64,000 nt of DNA from Thermoanaerobaculia bacterium (GTDB lineage Bacteria; Acidobacteriota; Thermoanaerobaculia; Gp7-AA8), in contig DATLFB010000033.1 of assembly GCA_035525285.1 (NCBI GenBank), positions 4,365 through 68,364 of the forward strand, given 5' to 3'. Position 1 is the stretch's first letter. Every line of letters begins with the position of its first letter. Shown piece after piece: positions 5,112-56,423 of this stretch. The notes under the pieces were generated by a model, which had not been told where the DNA came from, did no database searches, and was given only the letters and a program-made list of their open reading frames with translations. Position numbers and translations under genes: made by a program.

Positions 5112-5210
5112 AGCGATGAGCGATGAACGATGAACGATGAACGATGAACGATGAACGATGAATCAGATCATCGATCATCGTTCATCGTTCATCGTTCATC
5201 GTTCATCGTT
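5112..5210. repeat. Heptamer-tandem hairpin, family D: (GATGAAC/CGATGAA)x5 - loop - (TTCATCG)x4
   Basis: gagcgatgaacgatgaacgatgaacgatgaacgatgaatcagatcatcgatcatcgttcatcgttcatcgttcatcgttcatcg. Confidence 0.85.
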
Positions 5211-6299: not shown

Positions 6300-6430
6300 A
6301 GGGTAAAAGGTAAAAGGTAAAAGGTAGCCGGGGGAGGGTAAAAGGTAAAAGGTAAAAGGTAAAAGTGGCTCCGCCATTCGGCGCGCTTGCCGTTTTGCCT
6401 TTTACCTTTTTCCTTTTTCCTTTTACCTCT
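6300..6430. repeat. Heptamer-tandem hairpin, family B: (GGTAAAA)x3 + (GGTAAAA)x4 - loop - (TTTTNCC)x5
   Basis: gggtaaaaggtaaaaggtaaaaggtagccgggggagggtaaaaggtaaaaggtaaaaggtaaaag...ttttgccttttacctttttcctttttccttttacc. Confidence 0.85.
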
Positions 6431-8019: not shown

Positions 8020-10845
8020 TTGACCCGCTCCCCCGCCGCCGTCCTCATCGCCCCCTACCGCGAGATTGCCGCCGCCGTCGCCGCCCGTCTCGCCGCCGCG
8101 CGCGAGGGCTCCGATCCGCTCGACGCGTGGGCCGAAGAGGTGATCGTACCGTCGCGGGGGATGGCGGAGGCAATCTCGAATGAGTTGCTCGTGCGGACGC
8201 CGCGCGGCGTCGCGGGGGTGCAGATCCGCTTTCTGGACGAGCTCGCGCGCGCTCTCGTGAACGATGCGGGCGCGTTTCCGCGCGCAGCGTCGGATGCGGA
8301 GCGCCGGCTGGCGATGCGGATGGCGGTGCGCACGGTGCAGCATCCGATGATGGAGGGCCGCGGCGTGGCGGCGATGCTCGAGCGCTCGTATCGTGATCTG
8401 CGCGACAGCGGTCTCACGCTCGACGGCCTCTCCACGCGCGGCCTGCGCAATCCGCAGCGCACGCAGGCGATCCTCCGCGCATTCGCGGAGTACGAGCGCC
8501 TCATCGCACAGCTCGGCGCGATCGATCCCGCGGATCTCCTCGCGCAGGCGGAGCGCGTCGCGGAACACGCTCGTCCGCAACTGCTCGCCGGCTTCTACGA
8601 CATGACCGGCGCGCAAATGCGCTTCGTTCAGTCGCTGATGCCCCGTATCGCCGCAGTCTGGATTCCCACTGACATGCCGTTCGCCCAGCCGTTCATCGAA
8701 CGTAGCGGCGGGCTTCAGCCCGCCGGAAGCCGGCCGGCTGAAGCCGGCCGCTACGTTTCAGATGCAATGTCCTACGACACGAATCACGCCGAGCTGCGCG
8801 AGGTGTGCGCGCACGTCGCGGAGCTGCTGGAAGGGGGCGAGCAAAGCATCGCCATCACCGCTCGTTCCCTCGACCCCTACGCCATCCATCTCCTCAACCG
8901 CTTCGCCGCCGAGCACGGCTTCGCGACGACGCTGCCCGACGAAATCCCGCTCGCGGCCCATCGCATCGGCCGCGGCGTGCTGACGCTGCTCCGTCTGCGC
9001 GATCGCGGCTTTCCGCGAGGCGAGGTGCTGGAACTGGTGCGCGACGGCCTGCTCGCGCGCACGCGCATCGACGTCGATCGCGCGGACTACGAGACGCGCC
9101 GCGCGCACATCGCCGGCGGCACGAGCGAGGAGCTGGCGCCGCTGCGCAATCGTTCGCGCGCGCTCGACGAGTACATCGCGCTGGTGGCCGAGCTGGAGGA
9201 GTTGACCTCAGGGCTGCCCAGCTACCCGGCTGCCCGGCTACCCAGCACTTCGCCGGGAAGCCGGGAAGCCGGGAAGCCGGGGAGCCCACCGGAGCTCAGC
9301 AGTCTGTTTCGTGTCGAGACCGAGCTCGATCTCGTCGCGGCGGCGAGGCTCGACGAGATCGCGGCGCTGTTCCGGCGGACCGGACAGGCGGGATCGCCTG
9401 TCCTCCACGACCTCATCGACGCGATCGAGCAGGTGTCGCTGACGCAACCGCCGAGCGCGGGACCGAAGGTGTGGGCGGGCGATGTGATGCGCTTTCGCGG
9501 GCGCTCGTTCGCGCACGTGTTCGTCGTGCGGATGCAGGACGATGTGTTCCCGCAGCGGCGCACCGAGGATCCGCTGTTTCCCGATTCCGACCGCCGCGTC
9601 CTCGGGATGCGCGAGATCGGCGACGGGCGGGCGGAGGAGGAGCTGCTGCTGCAGCTCGTGCGCGAGTCCGCGGCGCACGTGCACTTCTCGTTCGCAAGCG
9701 GCGACGGGTTCGGCAAGGTGCTGCGGCCGTCACGGTATCTCCGCGGGCTTGACGTAGCGACCGACTTCAGCCGGTCGAAGGGCGGGCTGAAGCCCGCCCC
9801 TACGTTGTTGCGTCCCCTACAACTGCTCGTGAGGTCGGGAACGCGGTCCGTGTTCGACAGCTACCTCCCGATGCTTGCGGAGACCTTCCGCGCGCGCGTG
9901 CAGTCGGTGACGCCGACGCAGCTCGAGGACTTCGGCGAGTGTCCGCAGAAGTTTTTCTTCAAGCATCTCCTCGGCGTGCAGGAAGTCGAGCATCCCGAGC
10001 GCGAGCTGCAGATCCATCATCGCGAGAAGGGCTCGATCGATCACAAAATCCTCGAGCGCTTCTATCGCGCGCTGTCGTCCGCCGAGCTCGCGAACGCCGC
10101 GGCCGCGCTGCCGCGACTCCCCGACGCGCTCGCCGCGCGGCTCGACACGATCATCGACGAGACCTTCGACGAGCACGAGCAGCAGTTCCCGCCGTTCAAC
10201 CGCACGGTGCGCGGGATCGAGCGGCGCGCGACGAAGCGCATCCTCCGCGAGTTCCTCGCGGGCGACATCGCGGAGCTCACCGCCAGCGAGCTCGAGCCGC
10301 GCCACTTCGAGTACCGCTTCGGCGTCTCGCGCCGCGGCGCGTCGGATCATCCGGAGCCGTTCATCGTCCACGCGGGCGGCGTGCCGGTGCGCGTCGAGGG
10401 GACGATCGATCGCATCGACTACGGCGGGGCCGGCCTGCGCATCGTCGACTACAAGTCGGGAAAAGCAATCCGGCACAACTATCTGCCCGAGAAGATCGAT
10501 CGCGGCGTGCGGCTGCAGCTCGCGCTGTATGCGATGGCCGCCGCGGAGTTCTTCGACAACGCCAACGTCAGCGGCACGATCAAGCCGATCGTGACGGGCG
10601 AGCAGAAATTCAAGTTCGCGTTCGTGCTCGAGGAAAAGCGCGCGACGCTGCTCGAGACGCTCGAGATCTTCCTGCGCGCGATCACCGGCGGCATCTTCCC
10701 CGCGTTCCCGAACGACGAAGACTTCAACTCCTGCAAGTACTGTCCGGTGAGCCACTCGTGCCGCACGCGGCACGATCAGGAGGAGCGCTACGCCGTGCAG
10801 CAGCACCGCGATCCGCGCACGCTCCTCGGCGGAGGCGCGCCGTGA
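8020..10845 (+). CDS. AddB-like PD-(D/E)XK nuclease subunit of a two-subunit helicase-nuclease
   Basis: 941 aa. C-terminal nuclease motif IDRIDYGG..RIVDYKSGKA and Cys staple FGECPQKFF...DFNSCKYCPVSHSC (AddB-type Fe-S). Carries three in-frame palindromic elements (8700-8756, 9210-9290, 9757-9810). Confidence 0.7.
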   Translation: MTRSPAAVLIAPYREIAAAVAARLAAAREGSDPLDAWAEEVIVPSRGMAEAISNELLVRTPRGVAGVQIRFLDELARALVNDAGAFPRAASDAERRLAMRMAVRTVQHPMMEGRGVAAMLERSYRDLRDSGLTLDGLSTRGLRNPQRTQAILRAFAEYERLIAQLGAIDPADLLAQAERVAEHARPQLLAGFYDMTGAQMRFVQSLMPRIAAVWIPTDMPFAQPFIERSGGLQPAGSRPAEAGRYVSDAMSYDTNHAELREVCAHVAELLEGGEQSIAITARSLDPYAIHLLNRFAAEHGFATTLPDEIPLAAHRIGRGVLTLLRLRDRGFPRGEVLELVRDGLLARTRIDVDRADYETRRAHIAGGTSEELAPLRNRSRALDEYIALVAELEELTSGLPSYPAARLPSTSPGSREAGKPGSPPELSSLFRVETELDLVAAARLDEIAALFRRTGQAGSPVLHDLIDAIEQVSLTQPPSAGPKVWAGDVMRFRGRSFAHVFVVRMQDDVFPQRRTEDPLFPDSDRRVLGMREIGDGRAEEELLLQLVRESAAHVHFSFASGDGFGKVLRPSRYLRGLDVATDFSRSKGGLKPAPTLLRPLQLLVRSGTRSVFDSYLPMLAETFRARVQSVTPTQLEDFGECPQKFFFKHLLGVQEVEHPERELQIHHREKGSIDHKILERFYRALSSAELANAAAALPRLPDALAARLDTIIDETFDEHEQQFPPFNRTVRGIERRATKRILREFLAGDIAELTASELEPRHFEYRFGVSRRGASDHPEPFIVHAGGVPVRVEGTIDRIDYGGAGLRIVDYKSGKAIRHNYLPEKIDRGVRLQLALYAMAAAEFFDNANVSGTIKPIVTGEQKFKFAFVLEEKRATLLETLEIFLRAITGGIFPAFPNDEDFNSCKYCPVSHSCRTRHDQEERYAVQQHRDPRTLLGGGAP
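8700..8756. repeat. Palindrome family J (CGTAGCGGCGGGCTTCAGCCCGCCG...CGGCCGGCTGAAGCCGGCCGCTACG), intragenic and in-frame
   Basis: Perfect inverted repeat inside the addB-like CDS (encodes RSGGLQPAGSRPAEAGRY). Copies at 9757 and 54664. Confidence 0.8.
9210..9290. repeat. Family I-like element inside the addB-like CDS, in-frame
   Basis: ctgcccagctacccggctgcccggctacccagcacttcgccgggaagccgggaagccgggaagccgggg encodes LPSYPAARLPSTSPGSREAGKPGSPP. Confidence 0.7.
9757..9810. repeat. Palindrome family J, intragenic
   Basis: gcgaccgacttcagccggtcgaagggcgggctgaagcccgcccctacg within the addB-like CDS. Confidence 0.7.
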
Positions 10846-13800
10846 TGCAGAAGGCATTCGAGTGGGGGACCGGCAAACCTGCCGGTCCGGACAGGCGAGA
10901 TCGCCTGTCCTCCACCTCGCGTCGCAACGTCGTCATCGAAGCGGGCGCGGGAACGGGAAAGACGACGGCGATCGTGGCCGAGGTGCTGAAGCTGATGCTC
11001 GAGCGCGCGGAGCTCGCGCCGGAGCGCATCGTGCTGATGACGTTCACGGAGAAGGCCGCGGGCGAGATCGCGGATCGGATCCGGACAGCGCTCGAGGAGC
11101 TCTCCCAGTCTCCGGCTCTCACCTGGCCCATCGACTCCGCGCATCCCCTCCTCACGATCGACGACCCCGACTCCGCGCGCCGCGCGATCGCGCATCATCT
11201 CGCCAACATCGACGCGCTGCGCTCGCAGACGATCCACTCGTTCTGCCAGTCGCTGCTGCGCACCTTCCCGATCGAGGCGGGGCTCGATCCGCAGTTCAAG
11301 ATCATCGAAGGCTTCGAGCGCTCGCTGCTCTACGGGCAGCTGTACGACGCGTGGATCGATCAGGAGACGCGCGTCCATCCGACGGAGGAGGGAGTGCGCG
11401 AGTGGGAGCTGCTCTTCGCGCACGCCGGCTATCTCTTCCAGATCCGCGATCTGATCCTCGGCATGATCGATCGCCGCGATCTGCTCGAGGAGACGGGCTA
11501 CGACTTCGGCACGCTCGAAGAAGTCGAAGAGAAGCTGATCGATGCACTCGTCGCGATCCGCCGCTGCGGCGATACGGTGGGCGACGAGCAGGCGCAGCGA
11601 ATCTTCGCGTACGTCCGCGAGACCGATCCGCCGGCGCCCGGCGACATCGATCGCTGGCTCGAGTATCTCCATCCGATCGCCGCTTCGATCCGCGATGCGA
11701 ATCTGCCGCGCCACGGAATCCTCAAGGAGGCGCTGAAGATCCTGCGCGGCAAGGAGTCGAAGGGGCGCTCGGTCTACGACTATCTCGTGCGCCACCGTGC
11801 GGCAATCGCGCTGCTCGCGCTGACGCGGCGTTTCCTCGCCTACCTCGACGAGGAAAAGCGCCGCCTCGGCGTCGTCGACTTCGACGATCTGCTGCTCCGC
11901 ACGCTCGCGCTGCTCGACGACGCGGGCGTGCTGGCCCGCGCGCGCGCGCAGTTCGATTTCATCTTCGTCGACGAGTTTCAGGACACCGACCGCACGCAGG
12001 CGCGAATCATCGACCGCCTCGCGCGCGACGCGTCGGGCACATACGTCGCGGGCAAGACGATCGTGGTCGGCGATCCGAAACAGTCGATCTACGGATTCCG
12101 CCGCGCCGATCCGGAGACGTATTACCGGATGACGGAAGGTCTCGTGGCCGGCGGAGCGGAGCGGCGCGTGATCGCGGATCAGTACCGCAGCGATCCGCCG
12201 CTGCTCGACGCCGTGAACGCGCTCTTCGCACGGCTTTTCCCCGACACGCTGCAACACGACCCGAACGTGTTCCGCCCGCGTTACACGCCGCTGCGCGCGG
12301 CGCGCGAGTCGTCGCGCCGCGAGCTCGATGCGCGGATCACGCTGCTGCACGCGCAGCACGACGACGCGGCGGATAAGTTCATCGTCGAGGCGGAGGCGAT
12401 CGCGAAGTGGATCAAGGCGCGCGCGGAAGGCGATCTGCGGCGCTTCGCGATCCTCTTCCGGCGCCTGACGAAGCTCGACGATTATCTCGACACGTTCGAT
12501 CGCCACGGCATCGACTACGTGCTCCCGCCGACGCGCATGTTTCTCGACCGCCGCGCGCCGGTCGATCTGCTGGCGGTACTGCGAGCGATCGCCTACCCGT
12601 TCGATCACGGCGCGCAGATCTCGGCGGCAAGGACGCCGTACTTTGCGCTGACGGATGAGGAGATCGCGGAAGGGGTGCTGCGTGCTGCGTGCAGCGTGCA
12701 GGAGGGCGACGTGACGCAGCACGCAGCACGCAGCACGCAGCACCCGTGGACGGCATTCGTCGCCGCCATCGCCCGCTTCCGCGACCACGCCCGCCATCTC
12801 ACCGCCTCCCAGCTCATCGACCTCGTCATCACCACGACCGGCATCGAGCGCGTGTACGACGCCGCGGCGGACGGCGTGCGCCATCTGCGGCATCTCGAGC
12901 ACGTGCGCGCGATCGCGTTCGAGTACGACCAGCGCACGGGCGGATCGGTCGGACAATTCGTCGGGGAGATCTCGCAGCGGCGCGGCGAGCCGGACGAGAT
13001 CGAGCCGAGCCTGATCGACGAGTCGAAGAACGCGGTGCGGATCATGTCCGTGCACGCGGCAAAGGGGCTCGAGTTCGAGACGGTCATCCTCCCCGACCTC
13101 GCCGTGCAGCCGCCGTCGAACGACACGCAACTCTTCACCGTCGAGGAGCCGCGCAGCCTCGTGCTCGCGGGGCGCGTGGAGTCGATCTCGGCGAACTTCC
13201 GCTTCGCGAACGGCGAGAAACTGAAGCGCATCAACGCGCGGCGCGAGGAGGCGGAGACGCGGCGGCTGTTCTACGTCGGCGTCACGCGCGCGAAGACGGA
13301 CGTCGTGTTCGTCTGCAATCTCGCCGAGGAGACGAAGAACGTTGGATTCCTGCGCTGCCTGTGCGAGGGGCTGGGGATCGAGAAGAACGCGCTCACGGGA
13401 ATGTTCGTCGATGGACGCACGGTCCATGCGACAGAGATTGGGGATGTTGCGTTCGAGCGGGTGTGGAGTGCGGCAACGCCAGTTGCCGCTGTCGTAGGAA
13501 AGCGGCGACTGGCGTCGCCGCACTCCACACTCGAAGCGGAGCTCGCGACAGGCGGGATCGTCCCGTGCGAGATCGCCGCGCCCTCCCCTGTCACCGCGCG
13601 TCTCGCGACGAGCGAAGTGGCCGCGCGCCGCGCCGGCTCCCGCAATCGCGCGGCGGGCATCCTCCTGCATCGCGTCCTCGAGCGCTGGGACGGACGTGCC
13701 GATACCGAGCCGCTGCTGAAGCAGCTCGCGGTCGAGACCGCGGCGGAGGAGGAGGCGGTCGCGCGCGTACGCCGGCGGCTGGCCACGGTCGCGCGCTCCG

Positions 13801-14102
13801 CGACCCTGCAGCGCATCGCGAGCGCGGAGACGATCGGCCGCGAGGTGCCGGTGCGTTTCGTCGAGGAAGGCGCACTCGTCGAGCGCCGCATCGATCGCCT
13901 GCTGCGCGAGAACGGCGCGGAGCTCGTCGTCGACTACAAGAGCGGCGCGGCCGAGGAGTCGCGCGTCGCGAAAGACCGCGAGCACGTCGAGCGGTACTGC
14001 CGCGCGATCTCCGGCATCACCGGCCGCCCGTGCAGCGGGCTCCTCTGGTACGTCGATGTGGAGAACGACGTCGTCGTGGAGGTGCTGCGTGCTGCGTGCT
14101 GA
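10845..14102 (+). CDS. AddA-like ATP-dependent helicase-nuclease (UvrD-type helicase with C-terminal PD-(D/E)XK nuclease)
   Basis: Start ATG overlaps the addB stop (TGATG). VVIEAGAGTGKTTAIV (Walker A)...FIFVDEFQDTD...VVGDPKQSIYGFRRAD...C-terminal ELVVDYKSG nuclease motif. The ORF-track start at 9939 is an antisense-style extension. Confidence 0.8.
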   Translation: MQKAFEWGTGKPAGPDRRDRLSSTSRRNVVIEAGAGTGKTTAIVAEVLKLMLERAELAPERIVLMTFTEKAAGEIADRIRTALEELSQSPALTWPIDSAHPLLTIDDPDSARRAIAHHLANIDALRSQTIHSFCQSLLRTFPIEAGLDPQFKIIEGFERSLLYGQLYDAWIDQETRVHPTEEGVREWELLFAHAGYLFQIRDLILGMIDRRDLLEETGYDFGTLEEVEEKLIDALVAIRRCGDTVGDEQAQRIFAYVRETDPPAPGDIDRWLEYLHPIAASIRDANLPRHGILKEALKILRGKESKGRSVYDYLVRHRAAIALLALTRRFLAYLDEEKRRLGVVDFDDLLLRTLALLDDAGVLARARAQFDFIFVDEFQDTDRTQARIIDRLARDASGTYVAGKTIVVGDPKQSIYGFRRADPETYYRMTEGLVAGGAERRVIADQYRSDPPLLDAVNALFARLFPDTLQHDPNVFRPRYTPLRAARESSRRELDARITLLHAQHDDAADKFIVEAEAIAKWIKARAEGDLRRFAILFRRLTKLDDYLDTFDRHGIDYVLPPTRMFLDRRAPVDLLAVLRAIAYPFDHGAQISAARTPYFALTDEEIAEGVLRAACSVQEGDVTQHAARSTQHPWTAFVAAIARFRDHARHLTASQLIDLVITTTGIERVYDAAADGVRHLRHLEHVRAIAFEYDQRTGGSVGQFVGEISQRRGEPDEIEPSLIDESKNAVRIMSVHAAKGLEFETVILPDLAVQPPSNDTQLFTVEEPRSLVLAGRVESISANFRFANGEKLKRINARREEAETRRLFYVGVTRAKTDVVFVCNLAEETKNVGFLRCLCEGLGIEKNALTGMFVDGRTVHATEIGDVAFERVWSAATPVAAVVGKRRLASPHSTLEAELATGGIVPCEIAAPSPVTARLATSEVAARRAGSRNRAAGILLHRVLERWDGRADTEPLLKQLAVETAAEEEAVARVRRRLATVARSATLQRIASAETIGREVPVRFVEEGALVERRIDRLLRENGAELVVDYKSGAAEESRVAKDREHVERYCRAISGITGRPCSGLLWYVDVENDVVVEVLRAAC
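12683..12742. repeat. Heptamer-tandem hairpin, family F: (GTGCTGC)x3 - loop - (CAGCACG)x4, inside the addA-like CDS and in-frame
   Basis: gtgctgcgtgctgcgtgcagcgtgcaggagggcgacgtgacgcagcacgcagcacgcagcacgcagcac encodes VLRAACSVQEGDVTQHAARSTQH. Confidence 0.8.
13448..13540. repeat. Unique palindromic hairpin inside the addA-like CDS
   Basis: gtggagtgcggcaacgccagttgccg...cggcgactggcgtcgccgcactccac (in-frame: VWSAATPVAAVVGKRRLASPHST). Confidence 0.6.
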
Positions 14103-14140
14103 GTGCTACGCGGCACGCGGCACGCGGCACGCAGCACTAC
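14085..14140. repeat. Heptamer-tandem hairpin, family F (GTGCTGC / GCACGCG arms)
   Basis: gtgctgcgtgctgcgtgctgagtgctacgcggcacgcggcacgcggcacgcagcac. Overlaps the addA stop, between addA and marC. Confidence 0.8.
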
Positions 14141-25677: not shown

Positions 25678-25775
25678 GAGTTGAGAAAATTGAAAATTGA
25701 AAATTGAAAATTGAAAAAAGAGCGAACGGGCCCGTGCTGCGGCCTCCTTTTTCAATTTTCAATTTTCAATTTCAC
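25678..25775. repeat. Heptamer-tandem hairpin, family A (AAATTGA)x4 ... (TCAATTT)x3
   Basis: gagaaaattgaaaattgaaaattgaaaattgaaaaaagagcgaacgggcccgtgctgcggcctcctttttcaattttcaattttcaatttcac. Between coxB and ctaA inside the operon. Confidence 0.85.
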
Positions 25776-26804: not shown

Positions 26805-26935
26805 TCGATGGTTACCCGGCTGCCCGGTTGCCCGGCGGCGCAGTGCGGGTGCCTGCGCCTTTGCGTGATGTGGCGCCGCCCCCCGGACGGCGCCGCCGGG
26901 AAACCGGGAAACCGGGAAACCGCCCCCCGTCACGG
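26805..26935. repeat. Palindromic element, family I (longest copy)
   Basis: ggttacccggctgcccggttgcccgg...ccgggaaaccgggaaaccgggaaaccgcc, between two small ORFs of the oxidase operon. Confidence 0.8.
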
Positions 26936-31097: not shown

Positions 31098-34000
31098 TTA
31101 TTTGTGGAGGACAGGCAATCCTGCCTGTCGCGCTGGGACAGGCAGGATTGCCTGTCCTCCACGGTCGCCGGTTTGCACCGCCGGCGCGGGTGGTTGTCGA
31201 GGTGCGGGAACGGGCGCTGGACCCTCGGAGCCCGGACGCGCGGCGCGCATCTGATCGAGTCCGATGCTCCAGATGTAATCGCGGAGATAGTTCGTGAGCG
31301 CGACGGCGTCGGCCATCGTCTTGCGCAGCGCTTCGTCGCTCTCGAAGTACGGCCGCAGCACGGCGCGGTGGCCGGCGAACTGCGGCGTGTCGATCGCGTT
31401 CGCCAGCGGCGACTGGAAGCCGCCCGTCTGCGGATCGCGCGGGAAGTTCGCGGGCATGCGCGTGTCCGGGACCATCTCGCCCGGACGTCGGATCCAGTCG
31501 GCGATCCAGTCGTGGCGCAGGCGCAGTTTCGAGAGCGTGAGGTTCGGCGCGAGCGACGTGGTGTCGGCGACGTTGGGCACGGGCGGATTCGCGGGATCGA
31601 CCGGCGCCGTGGAGTGGCACTGCGCGCAGCGCAGCATCGTGTAGACCTCGCGGCCGATGGCGACGTTCTGCTGCGAGGGCGTCGCGAAGCGATGCGTGTC
31701 GAACTGCGGCTCGTCGCCTTCCGCGGCGAATCCGGCCACGAGCGTGGCCGCTTCCTGGTCGGTGAAGCCGAACGTCGGCATGCGCACGCTCAGCCACGGG
31801 CGGATCTTCATCACCGTCGGATCCTTCAGGAAGTTGAAGAGCCACGGCGACTGCGAGCGCTCGCCCTGCGGCGTCAGATCGGGCGGGAGAAAGTTCGTGT
31901 CGGTGATGAGGGCCGCGATCGCGCGGCCGTTGCGATTGACGACGTGGCATCCGCGGCAGTTGCGCTGCGAAATGATCTTGCGTCCTTCCTCCACCGCGCG
32001 CATGCCCGGATCGCGCGCGGCGAGACGGTTCTCCGCGACCTTCTCCTTCGTCAACCCGAGGATGACCGAGGAGACGAGCTGCGCTTCATCGGGCGACAGG
32101 TTGAAGTTCGGCATCTTCAGCTTGTCGTTGTAGGGCTTGGTACGGCGGTCGTCGTACACGCGCGGGCTGCGGACCTTGTTGTAGATCCACGACGGGACGT
32201 TGTGGAGGACGTACTCCTTCTTCCCGTCCTCGTGCTTGTAGTCGTGCGTGTGTGTGGATGTGCCGAAGAAGCCGAAGTCGAAGAGGTGCAGCGTCTTCGA
32301 GCCTTCGGTGGTGAGCTCGGTGCCGATCGGCTTGAGGCCGTCGAAGCCTTTGATGTCGTGGCAGGAGTAGCAGCCGTACTTTTCGATGGACCGCTGCCCG
32401 AGGTAGACGAGCTGCTCGCGATCGCTCATCGCTTTCAGCTTCGCGTCCGCGTCCACATCGGACATCGTGTTGATGAGGTAGCCCTTCGCCAGATCGTGCA
32501 CGGCCTTCCGCAAGGGCGGACGAATCGGCTCCTGCATGAAGCGCTGCTTCTGCAGCGACATCAGGTAGGCGGTGATGTCGGATGCCTCCTGATCGCTGAG
32601 GCGGAGGCTCGGCATCGGCGCGAACGGATCGTAGGCCTTCGGATTCTTCACCCAGTTGAAGATCCAGTTCGGATTCGTCTTCGAGCCGACGCCGGTGAGG
32701 TTGAATCCGAAGTGGCGCTCGAGCGGGAAGTCGTCGCGCTTCGCGACACGCACGGCGCCGGTCTTCGCGTCTTTGATCGTGTCCTGCGCAATGTGGCAGC
32801 CCATGCAGCCGATCGTATCGACGAGCTGCTTGCCGCGCGCCGCGTCACCGCCCGACGCCGGGGCGGACCAGTTGCGATGCGTGGATTTGTCAAAGAGGTA
32901 CGCGACGATCGAGTGGACCTCGGCATCCTGATACCGGACGTTCTGCGCGCGCTCGGCCTCCGGTACCGCCGGTCCGGTCATGTTGCGCTGGTAGAAGAAC
33001 GACGGCATGCGCGTGGTCGGACGGAAGTGCGTGGGGTTCGCGATCCAGCGGAAGGTCCAGGCGGGATTCGTTTTCTCGGCGATGCCTTCGAGCGAGGGGC
33101 CGGGCTTCTGCAGGTCGGTGAAGCGCCAGTTGTCGATCTTGTGGCAGGCATGGCAGCCGTACAACTCGACCATGTGCGCGGCTTTGTTGATCCGCTCGCC
33201 GTCGCGCACTTCCATCTGCGTCGCATGGCACTTCAGACATCCCGCCTCGAAATGCTGCCGCGGATACATCGGCGTCTCGAGGAACGGATTGACCTGATAG
33301 CCCCAGTTGCGCTTTTCGTAGTCGCCTTTCGTCGGGAAGAACGGCGAGGTCTTCTCCCAGCGCATCTCCATGCGCCGGCTCATCGGCGTGTGGCCCGCGC
33401 GTCCGAACTCGGTCGCGCGATCCTGCCCGCGGTGGCAAACCGTGCAGCCGTACTCGAGCAGCGGATGCGGCGAGGAGGAGCCGACGAAGACGTCGAGCTT
33501 CGGATGGGTACGGAAGGGATTCATCAATTCCGTCTTCGCGTCGACGATGCGCCTGAGCTCCGCGACGCGCTCCTCGGTCTCCGCCCGCCGCGCGGGAAGG
33601 ACGAGATTCCTGTCGAGCTGCGTCTGCAGTTGCTCCGCGAGCCGCTCCGCTTCCCGCTTCGACTCGAAGCCGGGGCGATCGATCGCGCGATGACAGGTCA
33701 TGCAGCGGTCGACGCGGGGCACCGACATGTAGTTCATGTCGATGAAGAGATCGCTGAGGACGACCTGATCGATTTTCAGGGTCGGGTTGATGAAGTCGAG
33801 CATCGGCGCGTTGAGCAGCAGGTTCGGCACGGATGCGACGGCGACGTTGCGCAGCTGCTTGTTCAGCAGATCGCTGCCGGCGGTGAGCTCTTTCCTGCGG
33901 TTCTCCAGTTCCTTGATGCGGGTGAGGAACTCGTCGACGCGCGCGCGGGCGGCGTCGCGACTGCGCGTGACGTCCTGCAGGACGAGATTGAGGCGGCCCA

Positions 34001-34463
34001 CCTTCGCGGTGTGCTCGTTGTACTCGTGCTCCTTTTCACGCAGGTCGCGGCGATGCTGCACCATCGCGGCCTCGAACTCGTAGCGCTTCGCATCGAGCAC
34101 CGCTTTCGCGAAGCGATAGTCCTGGTCCGCCGCGTAGTGTCTCCCCTCCCACTTGTCGAGGTCCCTCTGCGCTTCGATGTAGGCCTCGCGGTTGCGCGCG
34201 ATCTCGACCTGTCCTTCGCGCATTTCCCTGTCGAGCTCGGCGAGGCGCTTGCGCATCTCGGCGTCGTTCTTCGCCGTCAGCTCCTGCTCGATGCGCTCCT
34301 GCTGGATGCGATTGAACTCGCGCTGGAACCACTTCCATCCGCGCACGTAGTCGTACATCACCATCACGAGCGTGCCGGCGAGCAGACCGACACTCGTCCA
34401 GAGGAAGATGCCGTTCAGCGTCTTCATCGAGTAGTTGTGCGGAATGGGCTCCTGGGGTTTCAC
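31098..34463 (-). CDS. Octahaem c-type cytochrome with N-terminal TM helix and ~220-aa coiled coil (cytochrome c subunit of the Rieske/cyt b complex)
   Basis: Eight CxxCH motifs: CMTCH, CTVCH, CLKCH, CHACH, CMGCH, CYSCH, CRGCH, CAQCH. N-terminal TM LNGIFLWTSVGLLAGTLVMVMY, followed by a charged heptad-rich segment (QREFNRIQQERIEQELTAKNDAEMRKRLAELDREMREGQVEIARNREAYIEAQRDL...). Confidence 0.8.
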   Translation of the reverse strand: MKPQEPIPHNYSMKTLNGIFLWTSVGLLAGTLVMVMYDYVRGWKWFQREFNRIQQERIEQELTAKNDAEMRKRLAELDREMREGQVEIARNREAYIEAQRDLDKWEGRHYAADQDYRFAKAVLDAKRYEFEAAMVQHRRDLREKEHEYNEHTAKVGRLNLVLQDVTRSRDAARARVDEFLTRIKELENRRKELTAGSDLLNKQLRNVAVASVPNLLLNAPMLDFINPTLKIDQVVLSDLFIDMNYMSVPRVDRCMTCHRAIDRPGFESKREAERLAEQLQTQLDRNLVLPARRAETEERVAELRRIVDAKTELMNPFRTHPKLDVFVGSSSPHPLLEYGCTVCHRGQDRATEFGRAGHTPMSRRMEMRWEKTSPFFPTKGDYEKRNWGYQVNPFLETPMYPRQHFEAGCLKCHATQMEVRDGERINKAAHMVELYGCHACHKIDNWRFTDLQKPGPSLEGIAEKTNPAWTFRWIANPTHFRPTTRMPSFFYQRNMTGPAVPEAERAQNVRYQDAEVHSIVAYLFDKSTHRNWSAPASGGDAARGKQLVDTIGCMGCHIAQDTIKDAKTGAVRVAKRDDFPLERHFGFNLTGVGSKTNPNWIFNWVKNPKAYDPFAPMPSLRLSDQEASDITAYLMSLQKQRFMQEPIRPPLRKAVHDLAKGYLINTMSDVDADAKLKAMSDREQLVYLGQRSIEKYGCYSCHDIKGFDGLKPIGTELTTEGSKTLHLFDFGFFGTSTHTHDYKHEDGKKEYVLHNVPSWIYNKVRSPRVYDDRRTKPYNDKLKMPNFNLSPDEAQLVSSVILGLTKEKVAENRLAARDPGMRAVEEGRKIISQRNCRGCHVVNRNGRAIAALITDTNFLPPDLTPQGERSQSPWLFNFLKDPTVMKIRPWLSVRMPTFGFTDQEAATLVAGFAAEGDEPQFDTHRFATPSQQNVAIGREVYTMLRCAQCHSTAPVDPANPPVPNVADTTSLAPNLTLSKLRLRHDWIADWIRRPGEMVPDTRMPANFPRDPQTGGFQSPLANAIDTPQFAGHRAVLRPYFESDEALRKTMADAVALTNYLRDYIWSIGLDQMRAARPGSEGPAPVPAPRQPPAPAVQTGDRGGQAILPVPARQAGLPVLHK
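31104..31162. repeat. Palindrome family H (GTGGAGGACAGGCAATCCTGCCTGTC ... GACAGGCAGGATTGCCTGTCCTCCAC)
   Basis: Perfect 26-nt inverted repeat. Forms the last 20 codons of the octahaem cytochrome gene. Copies at 40206, 50886 and 55963; half-copies at 9378 and 10880. Confidence 0.85.
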
Positions 34464-34487: not shown

Positions 34488-34593
34488 ATAAAGGCAGAAG
34501 GCAGAAGGCAGAAGGCAGAAGTGAGAACCGTGACACGGCGCGTGACGCGTGCCTTTCTTACTTCTGCCTTCTGCCTTCTGCCTTCTGCCTTCA
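34488..34593. repeat. Heptamer-tandem hairpin, family C: (GAAGGCA)x4 - loop - (TGCCTTC)x4
   Basis: aaaggcagaaggcagaaggcagaaggcagaagtgagaaccgtgacacggcgcgtgacgcgtgcctttcttacttctgccttctgccttctgccttca. Confidence 0.85.
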
Positions 34594-36618: not shown

Positions 36619-36643
36619 CCAGCCCCCAACGAGTTGTCACGAA

Positions 36644-36726
36644 GCTCTTAGCTCTTAGCTGTTAGCTCTTAGGACATCGCCGTCGCCGGCCTTTCCTAAG
36701 AGCTAAGAGCTAAGAGCTAAGAGCTC
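36644..36726. repeat. Heptamer-tandem hairpin, family E: (GCTCTTA)x4 - loop - (TAAGAGC)x4
   Basis: aagctcttagctcttagctgttagctcttaggacatcgccgtcgccggcctttcctaagagctaagagctaagagctaagagctc. Confidence 0.85.
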
Positions 36727-37349: not shown

Positions 37350-37436
37350 GAACGATGAACGATGAACGATGAGCGATGAACGATGGTTCAACGCTCTGTT
37401 TCATCGCTCATCGTTCATCGTTCATCGTTCATCGTT
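37350..37436. repeat. Heptamer-tandem hairpin, family D (GATGAAC)
   Basis: gaacgatgaacgatgaacgatgagcgatgaacgatggttcaacgctctgtttcatcgctcatcgttcatcgttcatcgttcatcg. Confidence 0.85.
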
Positions 37437-38268: not shown

Positions 38269-38348
38269 GAATTGAAAATTGAAAATTGAAAATTGAAAAA
38301 CACGGAAGCACGATCCTTTTTCAATTTTCAATTTTCAATTTTCAATTT
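38269..38348. repeat. Heptamer-tandem hairpin, family A (AAATTGA)
   Basis: ggaattgaaaattgaaaattgaaaattgaaaaacacggaagcacgatcctttttcaattttcaattttcaattttcaattt. Confidence 0.85.
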
Positions 38349-38867: not shown

Positions 38868-38962
38868 GAATTGCGGTTGCCCGGTTGCCCTGTTTCCCGG
38901 TTGCCCGGTGCTGTGGGTGGGCGGGACCGGGAAACCGGGCAACTGGGAAACCGGGCAACCCT
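38868..38962. repeat. Palindromic element, family I
   Basis: gcggttgcccggttgccctgtttcccggttgcccggtg...gggaccgggaaaccgggcaactgggaaaccgggcaacc. Confidence 0.8.
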
Positions 38963-39344
38963 AAACCGACAACAACTCCGAAATCGTCTTGATCAGATGC
39001 GAGCTCTGAATCGGCTTCGAGATGTACGCATTCGCCCCCAGCGCCAGCCCGCGCTCCCGATCCTCTTCCGCACCTTCGGTGGTGATGATGATGATCGGGA
39101 TGCTCCTGAGCTGGGCGTTCTGGCGGACGAGCGAGACGAGCTTGAGTCCGTCCATGACCGGCATGTTGATGTCGGTGAGGATCAGGTCGATCTTGTCCGG
39201 ACCGGAGAGTTTCTTGAGCGCGTCGACGCCGTCGACCGCTTCGATGATCTTCGCGTTCTTGAATCGCTTCAGCGAAAACGAGATCAGTTGTCGCATGGTC
39301 GGCGAGTCTTCGACGACCAGAAAGTTCGCGTTCTCCATCCCCAC
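38961..39344 (-). CDS. CheY-like single-domain response regulator
   Basis: ...NFLVVEDSPTMRQL...LILTDINMPVMDGL...GANAYISKPI. Confidence 0.8.
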   Translation of the reverse strand: MGMENANFLVVEDSPTMRQLISFSLKRFKNAKIIEAVDGVDALKKLSGPDKIDLILTDINMPVMDGLKLVSLVRQNAQLRSIPIIIITTEGAEEDRERGLALGANAYISKPIQSSHLIKTISELLSV

Positions 39345-40205: not shown

Positions 40206-40270
40206 GTGGAGGACAGGCAATCCTGCCTGTCTCATGAAACGCGGACAGGCAGGATTGCCTGTCCTCCACT
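40206..40270. repeat. Palindrome family H
   Basis: gtggaggacaggcaatcctgcctgtctcatgaaacgcggacaggcaggattgcctgtcctccac. Confidence 0.85.
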
Positions 40271-42278: not shown

Positions 42279-42367
42279 GCGATGAACGATGAACGATGAC
42301 GATGAACGATGAACGGCCGCCACGCCTGCTCATCGTTCATCGTTCATCGATCATCGTTCATCGTTCG
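42279..42367. repeat. Heptamer-tandem hairpin, family D (GATGAAC)
   Basis: gatgaacgatgaacgatgacgatgaacgatgaacggccgccacgcctgctcatcgttcatcgttcatcgatcatcgttcatcgttcg. Confidence 0.85.
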
Positions 42368-44597: not shown

Positions 44598-44672
44598 GTG
44601 CCACGTGCTGCGTGCTGGGTGCTGCGTGCCGCCGCTGCCTTTACGCAGCACGCAGCACGTAGCACGCAGCAC
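44598..44672. repeat. Heptamer-tandem hairpin, family F (GTGCTGC)
   Basis: gtgccacgtgctgcgtgctgggtgctgcgtgccgccgctgcctttacgcagcacgcagcacgtagcacgcagcac. Confidence 0.85.
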
Positions 44673-47094: not shown

Positions 47095-47180
47095 GAAGGC
47101 AGAAGGCAGAAGGCAGAAGGCAGAACTGAGAAGTTCCACGTTTCTGCCTTCTGCCTTCTGCCTTCTGCCTTCTGCCTTCA
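47095..47180. repeat. Heptamer-tandem hairpin, family C (GAAGGCA)
   Basis: tgaaggcagaaggcagaaggcagaaggcagaactgagaagttccacgtttctgccttctgccttctgccttctgccttca. Confidence 0.85.
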
Positions 47181-49809: not shown

Positions 49810-51675
49810 TCACCGCCGCCCCGCCCTCTCGGAAGCAAACACCGCGTTGCCGAATGCGTATCCGGCCTGCGACAGGAAAATCTCGAGACCCGTCATGCTG
49901 TCGATCGGCGCACGATGCTCGGCGTTGTCGCCGTACAGAATACCAATCGCGCGATGCTCGTGCATGATCGGAAGGGCAACGACTTCCGTCGGCAGCAATC
50001 CGCCGAGGCCGTCGATGAGCTCGACATTCGCAGGCGTGCGCCGCATTTTCCCGTGATGGGCCTGCCCGCTTTGCGCGACGTCGGCGAGTACTGACGTCTG
50101 ATCGCGCGCGATGCGAAGCCTGCGCACGCGCGCGTCCGCCTCATCGCCCGCGGCGCCGGTGACGCCGAATCCGCCCAGGCCGACGAACTCTTTTTCGTTC
50201 GCCATGAAGAGCGCGCCGCGGTCGAGGTATTCGGCGGACAACCGGAGAATCGTCGCGGAAACCTGTCCGATGTCGTTCGGATTCGAGAGCTCGTTGATGA
50301 GCTGCCGCAGCAGATGGAACGAGCGATCGATGGTGTCCTTCGTGGCCATCTCGTAGAACTTCCTGCCGGCGTCGGGGCCGAGGCCGCGCGTGGTCTGCTC
50401 CCAATGCTCGAAGGCTCGCTCGGCGAAGAGCACGAGCTCGTCGGCGAAGAGCGAGAGCTCTTCTTCGGCGAGCCCCGGCTGCAGTCGCGCGGGAGACGGC
50501 TTGGTGAGATAGAGATCGGCGCCCGCGCGCAGGAGGTTGTGGCGGCGGCGCAGATCGGCTTCGATGTCGATGAGGACGATCGGCAGCCGCGGGTTCTTGC
50601 GCTTGACCTGCTGCATCAACCGGACGGAGGCCTCGTCTTCGGTCAGCTCGAGGAAGGTGACGAAGAAACTGTTCGCGCGGAAGAGCTCCGTCATCGCGGC
50701 GCGTACGTCTTCGAGTGTGCCGTACTGGAAAATCTTCGCGCCTTCGCGTGTGAACGCGCGCCGCGCGGCGACACGCACGAGCGGGTTGCGCTCGAACAAC
50801 ACGACATTCCGAAACGCCGCCTCCGGGGACTCGACTTCGAACAACCCGCCGGCGACTTTGAACTGGCCGCTGCCCGCGGGCGGCTGGCGCGTGGAGGACA
50901 GGCGATCCCGCCTGTCGTCTTCCGGGACAGGCAGGATTGCCTGTCCTCCACTGACGGTGTCCGGCAACTCTTCCACGGGTGTGAACGGCTTCTCGGCCGG
51001 CGCAGGGAACGTCAGGATGTTGTCGGTCGCCGTTTCCGCGGTGCCGGGAAGTTTCGGCACGGGCGGAGGACCGAGCGGCTGTCCGAGTCCGAGGTTGAGC
51101 GATGCGGGCGTGGCCTCGGCGGGAGCGGATCCGCGCAGCAATGCTTTCCCCACTTTCAGCGACTCCTCGAGTCCTTTCAGCGGCTTGATCTTCTCGCCGT
51201 CCGCGGCGCCGACGATCCTGTTCGGCGCGAACCCGCCTTCCTTGAAGAGTTGATCGGGCTCGTACTCGACGTCGAGCGGCGTCATCGTCTCGCTGAGGAT
51301 GAAGTTGAACTCCCCTTCCTTGCTCTGCAGCAGTGGCGTGACGACGGTCTGCACGCGCTCGCGAATCGCGTTCGCCAGATCGTCTTGCGAGAGGAGATTG
51401 AGCTCGAGGACGGCGGTGCCGTTCGGAATCCCCTGCTCCTCCATCTTCCGCACGACCTTCGCGCTCTCCTCGGGAATCAGCCCCGCGTTGAGGAGGTACG
51501 CGACGAGGTCATGATCCTCGGGGGATGAGGCATTGACCACGAGCCCGCCGCGAAACATCACCGTGTGCCGTCCGCTCGAGTTGATGATCTCGAGCACTCC
51601 CGTGCGACGGGAGAGATAGACGATCTGGACGATGTCGGTGAGGGAGAGATCCTCTAAACGCCCAAGGAGGCTCAT
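49810..51675 (-). CDS. DUF4388 + receiver-like + GAF domain protein, carrying an in-frame palindrome H insertion
   Basis: Start at MSLLGRLEDLSLTDIVQIVYLSRRTGVLEI (DUF4388-like). ...LPIVLIDIEADL... (REC-like). C-terminal GAF-like ...RGALFMANEKEFVGLGG.... Segment ...DTVSGGQAILPVPEDDRRDRLSSTRQPPAG is encoded by palindrome 50886-50951. Confidence 0.55.
   Translation of the reverse strand: MSLLGRLEDLSLTDIVQIVYLSRRTGVLEIINSSGRHTVMFRGGLVVNASSPEDHDLVAYLLNAGLIPEESAKVVRKMEEQGIPNGTAVLELNLLSQDDLANAIRERVQTVVTPLLQSKEGEFNFILSETMTPLDVEYEPDQLFKEGGFAPNRIVGAADGEKIKPLKGLEESLKVGKALLRGSAPAEATPASLNLGLGQPLGPPPVPKLPGTAETATDNILTFPAPAEKPFTPVEELPDTVSGGQAILPVPEDDRRDRLSSTRQPPAGSGQFKVAGGLFEVESPEAAFRNVVLFERNPLVRVAARRAFTREGAKIFQYGTLEDVRAAMTELFRANSFFVTFLELTEDEASVRLMQQVKRKNPRLPIVLIDIEADLRRRHNLLRAGADLYLTKPSPARLQPGLAEEELSLFADELVLFAERAFEHWEQTTRGLGPDAGRKFYEMATKDTIDRSFHLLRQLINELSNPNDIGQVSATILRLSAEYLDRGALFMANEKEFVGLGGFGVTGAAGDEADARVRRLRIARDQTSVLADVAQSGQAHHGKMRRTPANVELIDGLGGLLPTEVVALPIMHEHRAIGILYGDNAEHRAPIDSMTGLEIFLSQAGYAFGNAVFASERAGRR
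50886..50951. repeat. Palindrome family H, intragenic and in-frame
   Basis: gtggaggacaggcgatcccgcctgtcgtcttccgggacaggcaggattgcctgtcctccac. Confidence 0.85.
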
Positions 51676-51694
51676 CGCGGCACGCGTGTCCGGC

Positions 51695-51788
51695 GAAGGC
51701 AGAAGGCAGAAGGCAGAAGGCAGAAGTGAGAAAACGACGTGGCGTTGTTTCTTCCTTCTGCCTTCTGCCTTCTGCCTTCTGCCTTCAT
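51695..51788. repeat. Heptamer-tandem hairpin, family C (GAAGGCA)
   Basis: gaaggcagaaggcagaaggcagaaggcagaagtgagaaaacgacgtggcgttgtttcttccttctgccttctgccttctgccttctgccttca. Confidence 0.85.
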
Positions 51789-52204
51789 CCGGTTCCCGCG
51801 AGATTGTACCGTTTGAGTATCCCGTCAAGTATCCCGTTGATGAATTGACTCGACTTCTGGGTTCCGAACTTCTTCGCGATCTCGATCGCTTCATCGATGA
51901 TGACGAGCTTCGGCGTGTCGCTTTCGTGCATGAATTCGTAGATGGACATGCGGATGATGTTGCGGTCGACGGCGGCCATGCGCGAGAGGCGCCAGTTCTC
52001 GGCCTGGTTCTGGATCATCTCGTCGATCTCGGCGATGTGATCGACCGTGCCCCGGAAGATCCGGGTCGCGAACTCGCGCGTGTTCGGCTTCGACTTCTGC
52101 AGTTCCTCGAACGTCTCGATGATCTGATCCGGCGGATTGCCGGCCAGGTCGTGCTGAAAGAGCATCTGCAGTGCGAGCTCGCGTGCTTTGCGGCGGGCGC
52201 CCAT
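51785..52204 (-). CDS. nusB: Transcription antitermination factor NusB
   Basis: MGARRKARELALQMLFQHDL...RNIIRMSIYEF... Confidence 0.85.
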   Translation of the reverse strand: MGARRKARELALQMLFQHDLAGNPPDQIIETFEELQKSKPNTREFATRIFRGTVDHIAEIDEMIQNQAENWRLSRMAAVDRNIIRMSIYEFMHESDTPKLVIIDEAIEIAKKFGTQKSSQFINGILDGILKRYNLAGTG

Positions 52205-54699: not shown

Positions 54700-54721
54700 G
54701 CCCGGCTGTAGCCGGGCGCTA
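54664..54721. repeat. Palindrome family J
   Basis: cgtagggaccggcttcagccggtccacgcccggctgtagccgggcgctacg, between the gatA stop and the amidase start. Confidence 0.7.
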
Positions 54722-56146
54722 CGTCACCAACAGCGGCTTGCGCTTCCAGTATCCCGTCTCGCTCTCGAAGAACTCCGCCGCGCGGAAGAGAGCGCGCTCC
54801 GCAAAGTGCGGCGCCATCAGCTGCAGCGAGAGCGGCAATCCATCCGCGCTGAATCCGGACGGCACGGCGATGCCGGGCACGCCGACGAGATTCGCGGGAG
54901 CGGTGAAGATATCGCTCAGATACATCGATAGCGGATCATCGGTCTTCGCGCCGAGCGTGAACGCCGGCTCGGGAGTGGTCGGCGTGATGAGGTAGTCGAA
55001 CGCGCGGAACGCCTCCGCGAACTCGTGGCGCAGCTTGGCGCGCACGCGCTGCGCGCGGCCGTAGTACGCATCGTAGTAGCCGGCGGAGAGCGCGAAGGTG
55101 CCGAGCATGATGCGGCGCTTCACTTCCTCGCCGAACCCTTCGCCCCGCGAGTCGAAGTACACATCCTCGAGCGTGCGCGCGCGCGCACTGCGATGGCCGT
55201 AGCGGATCCCGTCGAAGCGCGACAGATTCGCGCTCGCCTCCGCGTTCGCGACGATGTAGTAGATCGCGATCGCGTACCCGATCGTCGGAATGCTCGCCTC
55301 TTCGACGATCGCTCCGCCACGGCGAAGCACCTCCGCCGCCGCTTCGAAATTCGCGCGCACTTCGCCGGTCAGCTGTTCGACCGCTTCGCGCACGATTCCG
55401 AAGCGAAGACCGTTCACGCCCGCGCCGAGCTCCGAGGTGTAGTCGTCGACGGGCTGCGTGCTCGACGTGGAGTCGAGCGGATCGTGACCGGCGATCACGC
55501 GCAGCACTTCCGCGCAGTCGCGCACCGTCTTCGTCACGATGCCGATCTGATCGAGTCCCGATGCAAAGGCGACGAGTCCGGAGCGGCTCACGCGTCCGTA
55601 GGTCGGCTTCAATCCGACGACGCCGCAGAACGCGGCCGGCTGCCGCACCGAGCCGCCGGTTTCCGATCCGAGAGCCGCGGGCACCATGCGCGCGGCCACC
55701 GCCGCGGCGGAGCCGCCGGACGAGCCTCCCGGCACGCGCGTGAGATCCCACGGATTGCGCACCGGGCCGAACGCGGAGTGCTCGGTCGACGAGCCCATCG
55801 CGAACTCGTCGAGATTCGTCTTGCCGATGATCGATGCGCCGGACGCGCGCAGCCTCGCGACCGCGGTGGCGTCGAACGGCGAGACGAAGTCGCGCAGGAT
55901 CCGCGATCCGCAGGTCGTGGGCATGTCCGTCGTGACGATGTTGTCTTTGATCGCGATCGGCAGCGTACTGTGGAGGACAGGCAATCCTGCCTGTCCGGAC
56001 AGGCAGGATTGCCTGTCCCCCACGTGCAGGAAGGCGTGCACGTCTTTGTCATGCGCATCGATCGCACGAAGGCACGCGTCGACGTACTCGCGCGGCGAGA
56101 CGCGATCGCGTGCCTCCGTCCACGGCAGCGAAAGCAGTTCACTCAC
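54719..56146 (-). CDS. gatA: Glutamyl-tRNA(Gln) amidotransferase subunit A, with an in-frame palindrome H insertion near the N-terminus
   Basis: GTG start 56146 overlapping the gatC stop. Amidase signature ...GGSSGGSAAAVAA...; segment ...HVGDRQSCLSGQAGLPVLHS... is encoded by palindrome 55963-56026. Confidence 0.9.
   Translation of the reverse strand: MSELLSLPWTEARDRVSPREYVDACLRAIDAHDKDVHAFLHVGDRQSCLSGQAGLPVLHSTLPIAIKDNIVTTDMPTTCGSRILRDFVSPFDATAVARLRASGASIIGKTNLDEFAMGSSTEHSAFGPVRNPWDLTRVPGGSSGGSAAAVAARMVPAALGSETGGSVRQPAAFCGVVGLKPTYGRVSRSGLVAFASGLDQIGIVTKTVRDCAEVLRVIAGHDPLDSTSSTQPVDDYTSELGAGVNGLRFGIVREAVEQLTGEVRANFEAAAEVLRRGGAIVEEASIPTIGYAIAIYYIVANAEASANLSRFDGIRYGHRSARARTLEDVYFDSRGEGFGEEVKRRIMLGTFALSAGYYDAYYGRAQRVRAKLRHEFAEAFRAFDYLITPTTPEPAFTLGAKTDDPLSMYLSDIFTAPANLVGVPGIAVPSGFSADGLPLSLQLMAPHFAERALFRAAEFFESETGYWKRKPLLVT
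55963..56026. repeat. Palindrome family H inside gatA, in-frame
   Basis: gtggaggacaggcaatcctgcctgtccggacaggcaggattgcctgtcccccac. Confidence 0.85.
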
Positions 56147-56423
56147 CGCCGATGACCTTCGGGACGACGAAGAATCCGTCGCGCCACGCCGGCGCGTTCT
56201 GCGCGACGAGCTCGCGGTCGAGTGACGCCCGATGCTCGTCGGCGCGCAACGGCGTGACAGTCGCGTCGCGCTCTTCGAATCCCTCGACATCGACCTCGCG
56301 CAGCTGATCGATGTAGGTCAGGATCTTCGTCATCTCCAACGCCATGCGCTCGAGGCCGGCGTCATCGAATTCCAGATGCGCCAGATCCGCGACCCGGCGG
56401 GCCTCCACGGCATCGATCTTCAT
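56139..56423 (-). CDS. gatC: Glutamyl-tRNA(Gln) amidotransferase subunit C
   Basis: 94 aa; MKIDAVEARRVADLAHLEFDDAGLERMALEMTKILTYIDQL... Confidence 0.85.
   Translation of the reverse strand: MKIDAVEARRVADLAHLEFDDAGLERMALEMTKILTYIDQLREVDVEGFEERDATVTPLRADEHRASLDRELVAQNAPAWRDGFFVVPKVIGGE

Follow-up and report, generated by a model that had tools for sequence, protein, structure and literature searches.

An in-frame REP-H dimer in the gatA gene of a Thermoanaerobaculia bacterium

Rickettsia palindromic elements (RPEs) reportedly lie in frame in open reading frames (ORFs), as laid out by Ogata and colleagues in 2000, and elements of the RPE-1 family measure about 100-150 bp. Here, we describe a palindrome in frame in the essential gatA gene of a soil acidobacterium, a Thermoanaerobaculia bacterium. 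It is located in a stretch of 64,000 nucleotides (positions 4,365 to 68,364 of the forward strand of contig DATLFB010000033.1, assembly GCA_035525285.1) that is called the window throughout. [quoted passage not shown] In-frame palindromic repeats are already known, and the gatA case is a clean new example rather than a new phenomenon.

The GTAG-type REPs include GTGG as a documented variant of the head, and this variant predominates in the GTAG-20 family of Opitutus terrae (Di Nocera, De Gregorio & Rocco 2013, BMC Genomics 14:522, PMC3733652). The O. terrae families GTAG-17 to GTAG-20 are made of stem-loop units with stems of 6-9 bp, they fall into compensatory sub-families, the spacers between their units go down to 0-2 bp, and a sizeable number of them are located completely within ORFs (PMC3733652). 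Moreover, GTAG- and CGTC-tagged REPs have been described in frame in ORFs, notably in O. terrae and in Rickettsia conorii: the intragenic GTAG dimers encode 20-30 residues and are hosted, among others, by dnaE, by genes of the uvrD/recB type and by genes for tRNA-related enzymes, and the short Rickettsia elements RPE-4 and RPE-6 are themselves REPs of the CGTC class (PMC3733652). REP-H resembles GTAG-17 to GTAG-20 in its GTGG-tagged stem-loops, the compensatory changes in its stems, the dimers with zero spacer, the residence in ORFs and even the host gene dnaE, but it is a different sequence family and belongs to a different phylum. Neither the peptides encoded by REP-H nor any gatA or other amidotransferase host can be found in the lists given in PMC3733652.

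With the REPIN-RAYT system (Bertels & Rainey 2011, PMC3116915), in which REPs are associated with a tyrosine transposase (RAYT), REP-H shares the inverted pair that forms a long hairpin, the high copy number, the dominant master sequence and an occurrence in related species that suggests vertical inheritance. In contrast to this system, no cognate RAYT was found for REP-H in the approximately 800 kb that were examined, and classical REPINs are almost exclusively extragenic (PMC3116915). As to the RPEs, a previous reading of the window from its sequence only had likened the palindrome to them. This likeness holds for the behaviour, i. e. a stop-free repeat that resides in ORFs which are apparently still functional, housekeeping genes included, but it does not hold for the identity of the element, which is a GTGG-headed REP dimer. 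By their description, the sequences not having been compared, the RPEs are set apart from REP-H by its GTGG head, the lack of a CGTC tag and the size of 27 nt for the unit and 54 nt for the dimer. REP-H is not an RPE because head and size differ. The hosts are different as well: a reduced, A+T-rich intracellular alphaproteobacterium in the case of the RPEs and a free-living acidobacterium with a G+C content of 65% in the case of REP-H. Our literature search retrieved no paper that contains the REP-H sequence or deals with such repeats in Thermoanaerobaculia.

The palindrome in gatA

The palindrome consists of two arms of 27 nt each that follow each other without a spacer, giving 54 nt in total, and the arms are complementary at 26 of the 27 positions (96%); on the plus strand, the element starts with GTGGA and ends with CCCAC. 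The sequence-only reading had announced a perfect palindrome of 54 nt within positions 55963-56026 that lies in frame near the N-terminus of gatA. The element was indeed located inside this interval, at 55970-56023, and it has the length that had been given, but due to the single mismatch it is not perfect. The reading frame passes through it without interruption: codons 42-59, encoded on the minus strand, read VGDRQSCLSGQAGLPVLH. If the region is folded as RNA (-62 kcal/mol in total; z = -7.9 as compared to shuffled sequences), a hairpin of 25 bp is obtained, which is 123 nt away from the start codon. There is no T-run behind the hairpin, so that an intrinsic terminator is excluded, and an Rfam scan of the region returned only generic hairpin matches (best score 31.9 bits vs a gathering score of 268). 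No stop codon is present in any of the six frames of the palindrome, and due to the palindromy both strands read alike. According to our own estimate, about one quarter of random 54-nt palindromes of this G+C content are expected to be free of stop codons. The absence of stops in all frames is thus no evidence of selection, but it is permissive.

The key question is whether this segment was inserted or is ancestral. The alignment of the N-termini of GatA orthologues, which the sequence-only reading had proposed as a check, gave a clear answer: the segment is absent from 118 of the 120 closest orthologues (77-92% identity), and it is absent from all solved GatA structures, none of which contains a homologous stretch at this place. 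In the orthologues, the empty site follows the pattern HV-NxxAxxGx-LPIA, with a typical loop of eight residues, NRDAPAGT, between HV and LP(I/V)A; the few longer loops (up to about 25 residues) do not resemble the segment encoded by the palindrome. Since the segment is missing from nearly all orthologues and from the structures, it is a derived insertion rather than ancestral sequence. One relative, the protein P0002 (92% amino acid identity), carries the same segment at the same site; it is encoded at locus L001 of an independent ENA assembly. Judged from these alignments, the in-frame insertion goes back to one event in a common ancestor of the two lineages. A metagenome scan for the junction between gatA and the repeat, TTYCTNCAYGTGGRGGACAGGC, yielded three matches, none of them in gatA, and thus no further carriers among the metagenomes scanned.

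The exact boundaries of the insertion were obtained from a DNA alignment of the filled sites in the window and at L001 with the empty site at locus L002. The empty site reads CAC GTG / AAC GCC GAG GCG GAA GCA / GGC GCG CTG CCG whereas the filled site reads CAC GTG / GGG GAC ... CTC CAC / AGT ACG CTG CCG. Thus, 18 nt of native sequence are replaced by 51 nt of the element, a net increase of 33 nt or 11 residues. The sequence-only reading had assumed a gain of about 18 residues; 18 codons are spanned by the palindrome, but the first GTG of the element coincides with the native valine codon and six native residues are gone, so that the net gain is only 11. Two further observations concern the surroundings of gatA at L001: another REP-H dimer with zero spacer lies 13 nt past the gatA stop codon (L001 2403-2456), and the genes that lie downstream of gatA are arranged in another order than in the window.

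The host gene is otherwise a canonical amidase gene, as had been proposed. GatA contains the PF01425 domain, it matches the Aquifex protein (3H0L) with an E value of 2e-143 with the motifs LPIAIKDNI, GGSSGGS and GSETGGSVRQPA aligned, and the Lys, cis-Ser and Ser residues of the amidase signature are all present. Moreover, gatC is located directly upstream, and the identical sequence has already been recorded as a GatA protein from a metagenome-assembled genome (MAG) of Thermoanaerobaculia. The comparison between the window and L001 gave a dN/dS ratio of 0.11 at a dS of 0.53, indicating that purifying selection has acted on gatA ever since the insertion took place. The catalytic Lys67 is located eight residues past the end of the insert. 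The length of the loop that received the insert varies naturally: most relatives have eight residues and a few have up to about 25, and the loop comprises 14 residues in Thermotoga maritima and about 27 in Staphylococcus aureus, where it forms a helix-loop. An AF2 model of GatA built on 38 orthologues had a mean pLDDT (predicted local distance difference test) of 70.7, and Foldseek aligned it to 3H0L with a template modelling (TM) score of 0.84. This mediocre model shows the insert mainly as coil, a short helix being predicted for residues 45-49, and the pLDDT falls below 50 at residues 52-59. The idea of a tolerated surface loop, which was already part of the sequence-only reading, is supported only indirectly, by the variable loop length and the low-confidence coil, and the natural variation in length is stronger evidence for tolerance than the model.

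The REP-H family and its copies inside genes

The REP-H unit comprises 27 nt: a GTGGA head of 5 nt followed by a G+C-rich stem of 9 bp with a loop of 4 nt. The hairpin itself corresponds to the 22-nt core GGACAGGCAGGATTGCCTGTCC, with its 9-bp stem and a GGAT loop. Allowing up to three mismatches, this core has 11 matches at six sites of the window as compared to none in 100 shuffled sequences, and all full copies in the window are built in the same way: GTGGA, hairpin, spacer, inverted hairpin, TCCAC. The family extends far beyond the window. A scan in which each species was represented by a single genome detected it in at least 103 stretches from about 20 species-level MAGs, most of which are Thermoanaerobaculia or unclassified Acidobacteriota while a few are labelled Terriglobia, Bryobacterales, Armatimonadota or Actinoplanes. 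A search of a database of 5.8 billion proteins with three joined REP-encoded peptides as the query resulted in 12 candidates, none of them usable, the word index of this search being unsuited to short queries.

Two-unit inverted dimers account for about half of the evaluable elements (63 of 126). In the 66 dimers that were collected, the heads point outward and the GTGGA/TCCAC tags are nearly invariant: most dimers have GTGGA on the left flank and TCCAC on the right, and 182 of 364 unit matches, both orientations counted, are followed by TCCAC. The spacers between the units range from 0 to 38 nt, and the most common class is the zero-spacer form found in gatA (16 of 66). The stems vary in a partly compensatory manner, with 39 compensatory pairs vs 41 one-sided breaks and with the recurrent variants GGACAGACA..TGTCTGTCC and GGACAGGCG..CGCCTGTCC. 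Among the collected units, a dominant master sequence occurs without any change 131 times in each of the two orientations. REP-H has the hallmarks of the GTAG super-family, i. e. a stem-loop unit, the GTGG variant of the head, dispersed copies in related species and compensatory stem sub-families, as well as those of a REPIN: an inverted pair of REPs that forms a long hairpin, filled and empty sites as in gatA, and peptides at varied positions in AddB proteins. In another Thermoanaerobaculia MAG, two REP-H dimers (L040, 5017-5086 and 6029-6100) bracket a gene that, as judged by eye, resembles tsf (EF-Ts).

How often does REP-H reside in genes? The copies were located by an exhaustive Hamming scan, and an element was regarded as intragenic if it lies in a continuous ORF with a positive coding signal on both sides and in the same frame; the signal was derived from a codon log-odds model trained on 212 long ORFs with a high G+C content at third codon positions. 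By this conservative test, 29 of the 126 evaluable elements (23%) are intragenic, a share that depends on the method which we devised and should not be set directly against the figures in PMC3733652. Both gatA copies failed the filter because the N-terminal part of gatA is short, which illustrates that the test is conservative. Random positions were classified as intragenic by the same test in 62% of cases, and 38% of them were outside ORFs as compared to 77% of the REP-H elements. Thus, the family is depleted from genes about 2.7-fold, with a quarter or more of the copies located inside.

The intragenic copies occupy a wide range of proteins. In a hybrid histidine kinase, a P-type ATPase and an FAD protein, Pfam domains are found on both sides of the element, in a non-ribosomal peptide synthetase (NRPS) it lies inside the adenylation domain, in DnaE (L085) it is placed between the HHH_6 and OB domains, and in MurG (L026) between the two domains of the protein. 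When the latter two are compared to solved structures, the REP-encoded stretch fills an existing variable linker with a net gain of only six residues in MurG and two in DnaE. This suggests that the effect of the element on native loop residues, here and in gatA alike, is replacement more than addition. In AddB orthologues, REP-H peptides are present at differing positions, indicating repeated independent insertions. In-frame residence is a behaviour of the whole family, and REP-H explains odd low-complexity loops such as GQAGLPVLH, GGQAILPV and TGRIACPP in proteins of Thermoanaerobaculia.

Origin of the insertion and competing explanations

We propose that a REP/REPIN-type repeat spread within this lineage and that a dimer without spacer, in a common ancestor of the MAG and its one relative, inserted into gatA at the short variable loop ahead of the strand with the catalytic lysine. 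There, 51 nt of the element stand where 18 native nt had been, and since both numbers are multiples of three and no stop codon is present in six frames, the reading frame was preserved. Most likely, the segment just undergoes translation, providing GatA with a loop of 17-18 residues, GDRQSCLSGQAGLPVLH, that the enzyme tolerates. The mobilising enzyme would be expected to be an HUH tyrosine transposase of the RAYT type with the hairpin as its substrate. Taken as a whole, we consider this account of a translated and tolerated loop to be likely.

Several points weigh against it. That the segment is translated, and that it is exposed on the surface of the protein, is what we infer. The low pLDDT of the insert is weak evidence since conserved stretches elsewhere in the AF2 model have low confidence as well. 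Neither a RAYT nor any other Y1 transposase was detected in the approximately 800 kb examined, which fall short of whole genomes: a scan for HUH/Y motifs gave nothing, the best hit of a tblastn search with the E. coli TnpA-REP (identical to PDB 4ER8) had an E value of 0.43, and none of the ORFs between neighbouring REPs that we inspected encodes a RAYT. The mobilising enzyme is therefore unproven. Finally, the element has diverged much less than its surroundings. Between the window and L001 (1089-1142), it differs at 2 of 54 nt as compared to 14.4% in the rest of gatA, and third codon positions have changed in 1 of 18 cases as compared to 33% (binomial P = 0.007, based on one sequence pair); simple neutral tolerance does not explain this difference.

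It is tempting to speculate that the hairpin in gatA, and perhaps in other in-frame copies, is also kept by selection at the nucleotide level, i. e. that the segment is both a tolerated loop and a functional DNA or RNA hairpin. The hairpin might then act as a site for RNase III or for translation pausing that tunes the expression of gatCAB, or it might be a REPIN copy that is maintained for its transposase. In addition to the low divergence, this idea would be in good agreement with the nature of the two changes in the element, which together form one compensatory swap from an A-T to a G-C base pair in the stem of the right-hand unit, a variant found nowhere else in the sequence that we collected, and with the very stable hairpin that the mRNA can form, 123 nt away from the start codon. 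However, all this is based on a single sequence pair, and selection is not needed to account for it: template switching, which is typical of quasi-palindromes, can generate compensatory pairs in a single step, and gene conversion can homogenise repeat copies. Moreover, the lack of a T-run excludes an intrinsic terminator, no Rfam family matches, and the many unrelated host genes speak against a gene-specific role. We therefore regard selection for the hairpin as rather unlikely. If dual coding were true, this would be a free-living counterpart of Rickettsia with a high G+C content, with several palindromic families routinely building pieces of essential proteins.

Two other explanations would question the translated loop itself. 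Ribosomes might bypass the hairpin and leave the segment untranslated, as is known from T4 gene 60 and the mitochondrial byp elements, with take-off at the CAC codon of His41 and landing at the final CAC of the element. Identical CAC codons do stand directly before the element and at its end, 54 nt apart and with a strong hairpin between them. Yet no stop codon follows the take-off codon, and the element is open in all frames; the intragenic copies always keep the flanking frame; other in-frame copies lack matching flanking codons (at L026, the element is preceded by a Glu codon and ends with a His codon); and the resulting loop would be seven residues shorter than in any orthologue. We give bypassing very little credence, and the peptides would tell the two apart: the translated insert predicts the tryptic peptide QSCLSGQAGLPVLHSTLPIAIK whereas bypassing predicts the junction AFLH-STLPIAIK. 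Similarly, the window stems from a short-read metagenome assembly in which repeats can be misjoined, and gatA might be a decaying pseudogene. But the repeat of 54 nt is shorter than the k-mer of the assembler implied by the "k141" contig names, and its flanks are unique. An assembly artefact is contradicted by the presence of the same insert at an identical location in the independent assembly of another sample with flanks that have diverged by 14%, and a pseudogene by the intact ORF, the catalytic motifs and the dN/dS ratio of 0.11. Artefact and decay thus have next to no probability.

The REP-H dimer in gatA is a well-documented example from a phylum that has hardly been studied, and few bacteria are known that have palindromic repeats in essential genes. 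It offers filled and empty sites, an insertion that has been inherited over about 0.5 of synonymous divergence, and a host gene under purifying selection. This makes the system tractable for two problems: how proteins absorb "selfish" peptides, given that the element here appears to replace native loop residues, and whether REP hairpins stay constrained even when they are translated.

Other palindromic repeats of the window

The REP-H copies of the window are listed in Table 1 together with the host genes and a second group of repeats. These are about 18 hairpin loci in which tandem 7-mers or 8-mers form one arm and the reverse complements of these the other; each arm contains 4-7 copies, and the spacer measures 6-30 nt. 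At least six repeat units are used, AATTGAA, CGATGAA, GGTAAAA, GTGCTGC, GAAGGCA and AGCTCTT, and also GGTTGCCC. Some of these hairpins are A+T-rich in a genome with 65% G+C, and most of them look intergenic. To our knowledge, no family with tandem 7-mer or 8-mer arms has been described.

Table 1. Genes and palindromic repeats of the window discussed in the text
Feature	Position	Strand	Remarks
gatA	54719..56146	-	475 aa; amidase signature; catalytic Lys67 intact in LPIAIKDNI, GGSSGGS and GSETGGSVRQPA; GTG start at 56146-56144, overlapping the gatC stop
gatC	56139..56423	-	94 aa; stop overlaps gatA GTG start (GTGA)
REP-H dimer in gatA	55970..56023		two inverted 27-nt units, no spacer, heads outward; encodes GatA residues 42-59 (minus strand)
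Left REP unit	55970..55996	+	GTGGA head, stem GGACAGGCA, loop ATCC, stem TGCCTGTCC
Right REP unit	55997..56023	-	inverted copy; head GTGGG on the minus strand, giving the sole palindrome mismatch
Single REP-H unit	9382..9408	+	in frame in AddB-like nuclease gene 8020..10845(+); encodes TGQAGSPVLH
Degenerate REP-H dimer	10862..10915		no spacer; between AddB-like stop and UvrD/AddA-like helicase domain
REP-H dimer	31104..31162		last ~20 codons (GGQAILPVPARQAGLPVLHK*) of multihaem cytochrome ORF 31098..34463(-)
REP-H dimer	40206..40269		intergenic, 10-nt spacer; between cheB-like gene and GAF-domain gene
REP-H dimer	50891..50951		7-nt spacer; in frame in gene 49810..51894(-), between DUF4388 and response-regulator receiver domains
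7-mer-arm hairpins	2473-2553, 5114-5210, 6302-6428, 12675-12743, 14082-14137, 25685-25772, 34491-34592, 36643-36725, 37350-37436, 38270-38348, 42280-42366, 44604-44672, 47095-47179, 51695-51786		
8-mer-arm hairpins	920-1016, 9212-9286, 26810-26922, 38874-38968		

The 8-mer-arm palindrome at 9212-9286 lies in frame in the AddB-like gene and encodes GLPSYPAARLPSTSPGSREAGKPGSP, showing that this class also enters ORFs. No orthologue fully spans the segment, and the closest ones shown are about 22 residues shorter at this place. The same ORF harbours two units of a second REP family with the canonical GTAG head (GTAGGGGCGGGCTTCAGCCCGCCC), at 8702-8725 on the plus strand and at 9780-9803 on the minus strand. 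Some AddB orthologues have related peptides (GGLKPA, GGLQ) in the same hypervariable place, and such peptides are also encoded in a Rho gene and an NRPS gene at other loci. A third REP-like dimer with a GTGGA head and a different stem (GTGGAGTGCGGCAACGCCAGTTGCCGC) is located at 13458-13533, inside the AddA/UvrD-like ORF 9939..14102. Together with the other elements, the total for the AddAB-like gene pair is at least six palindromic elements, which belong to four kinds.

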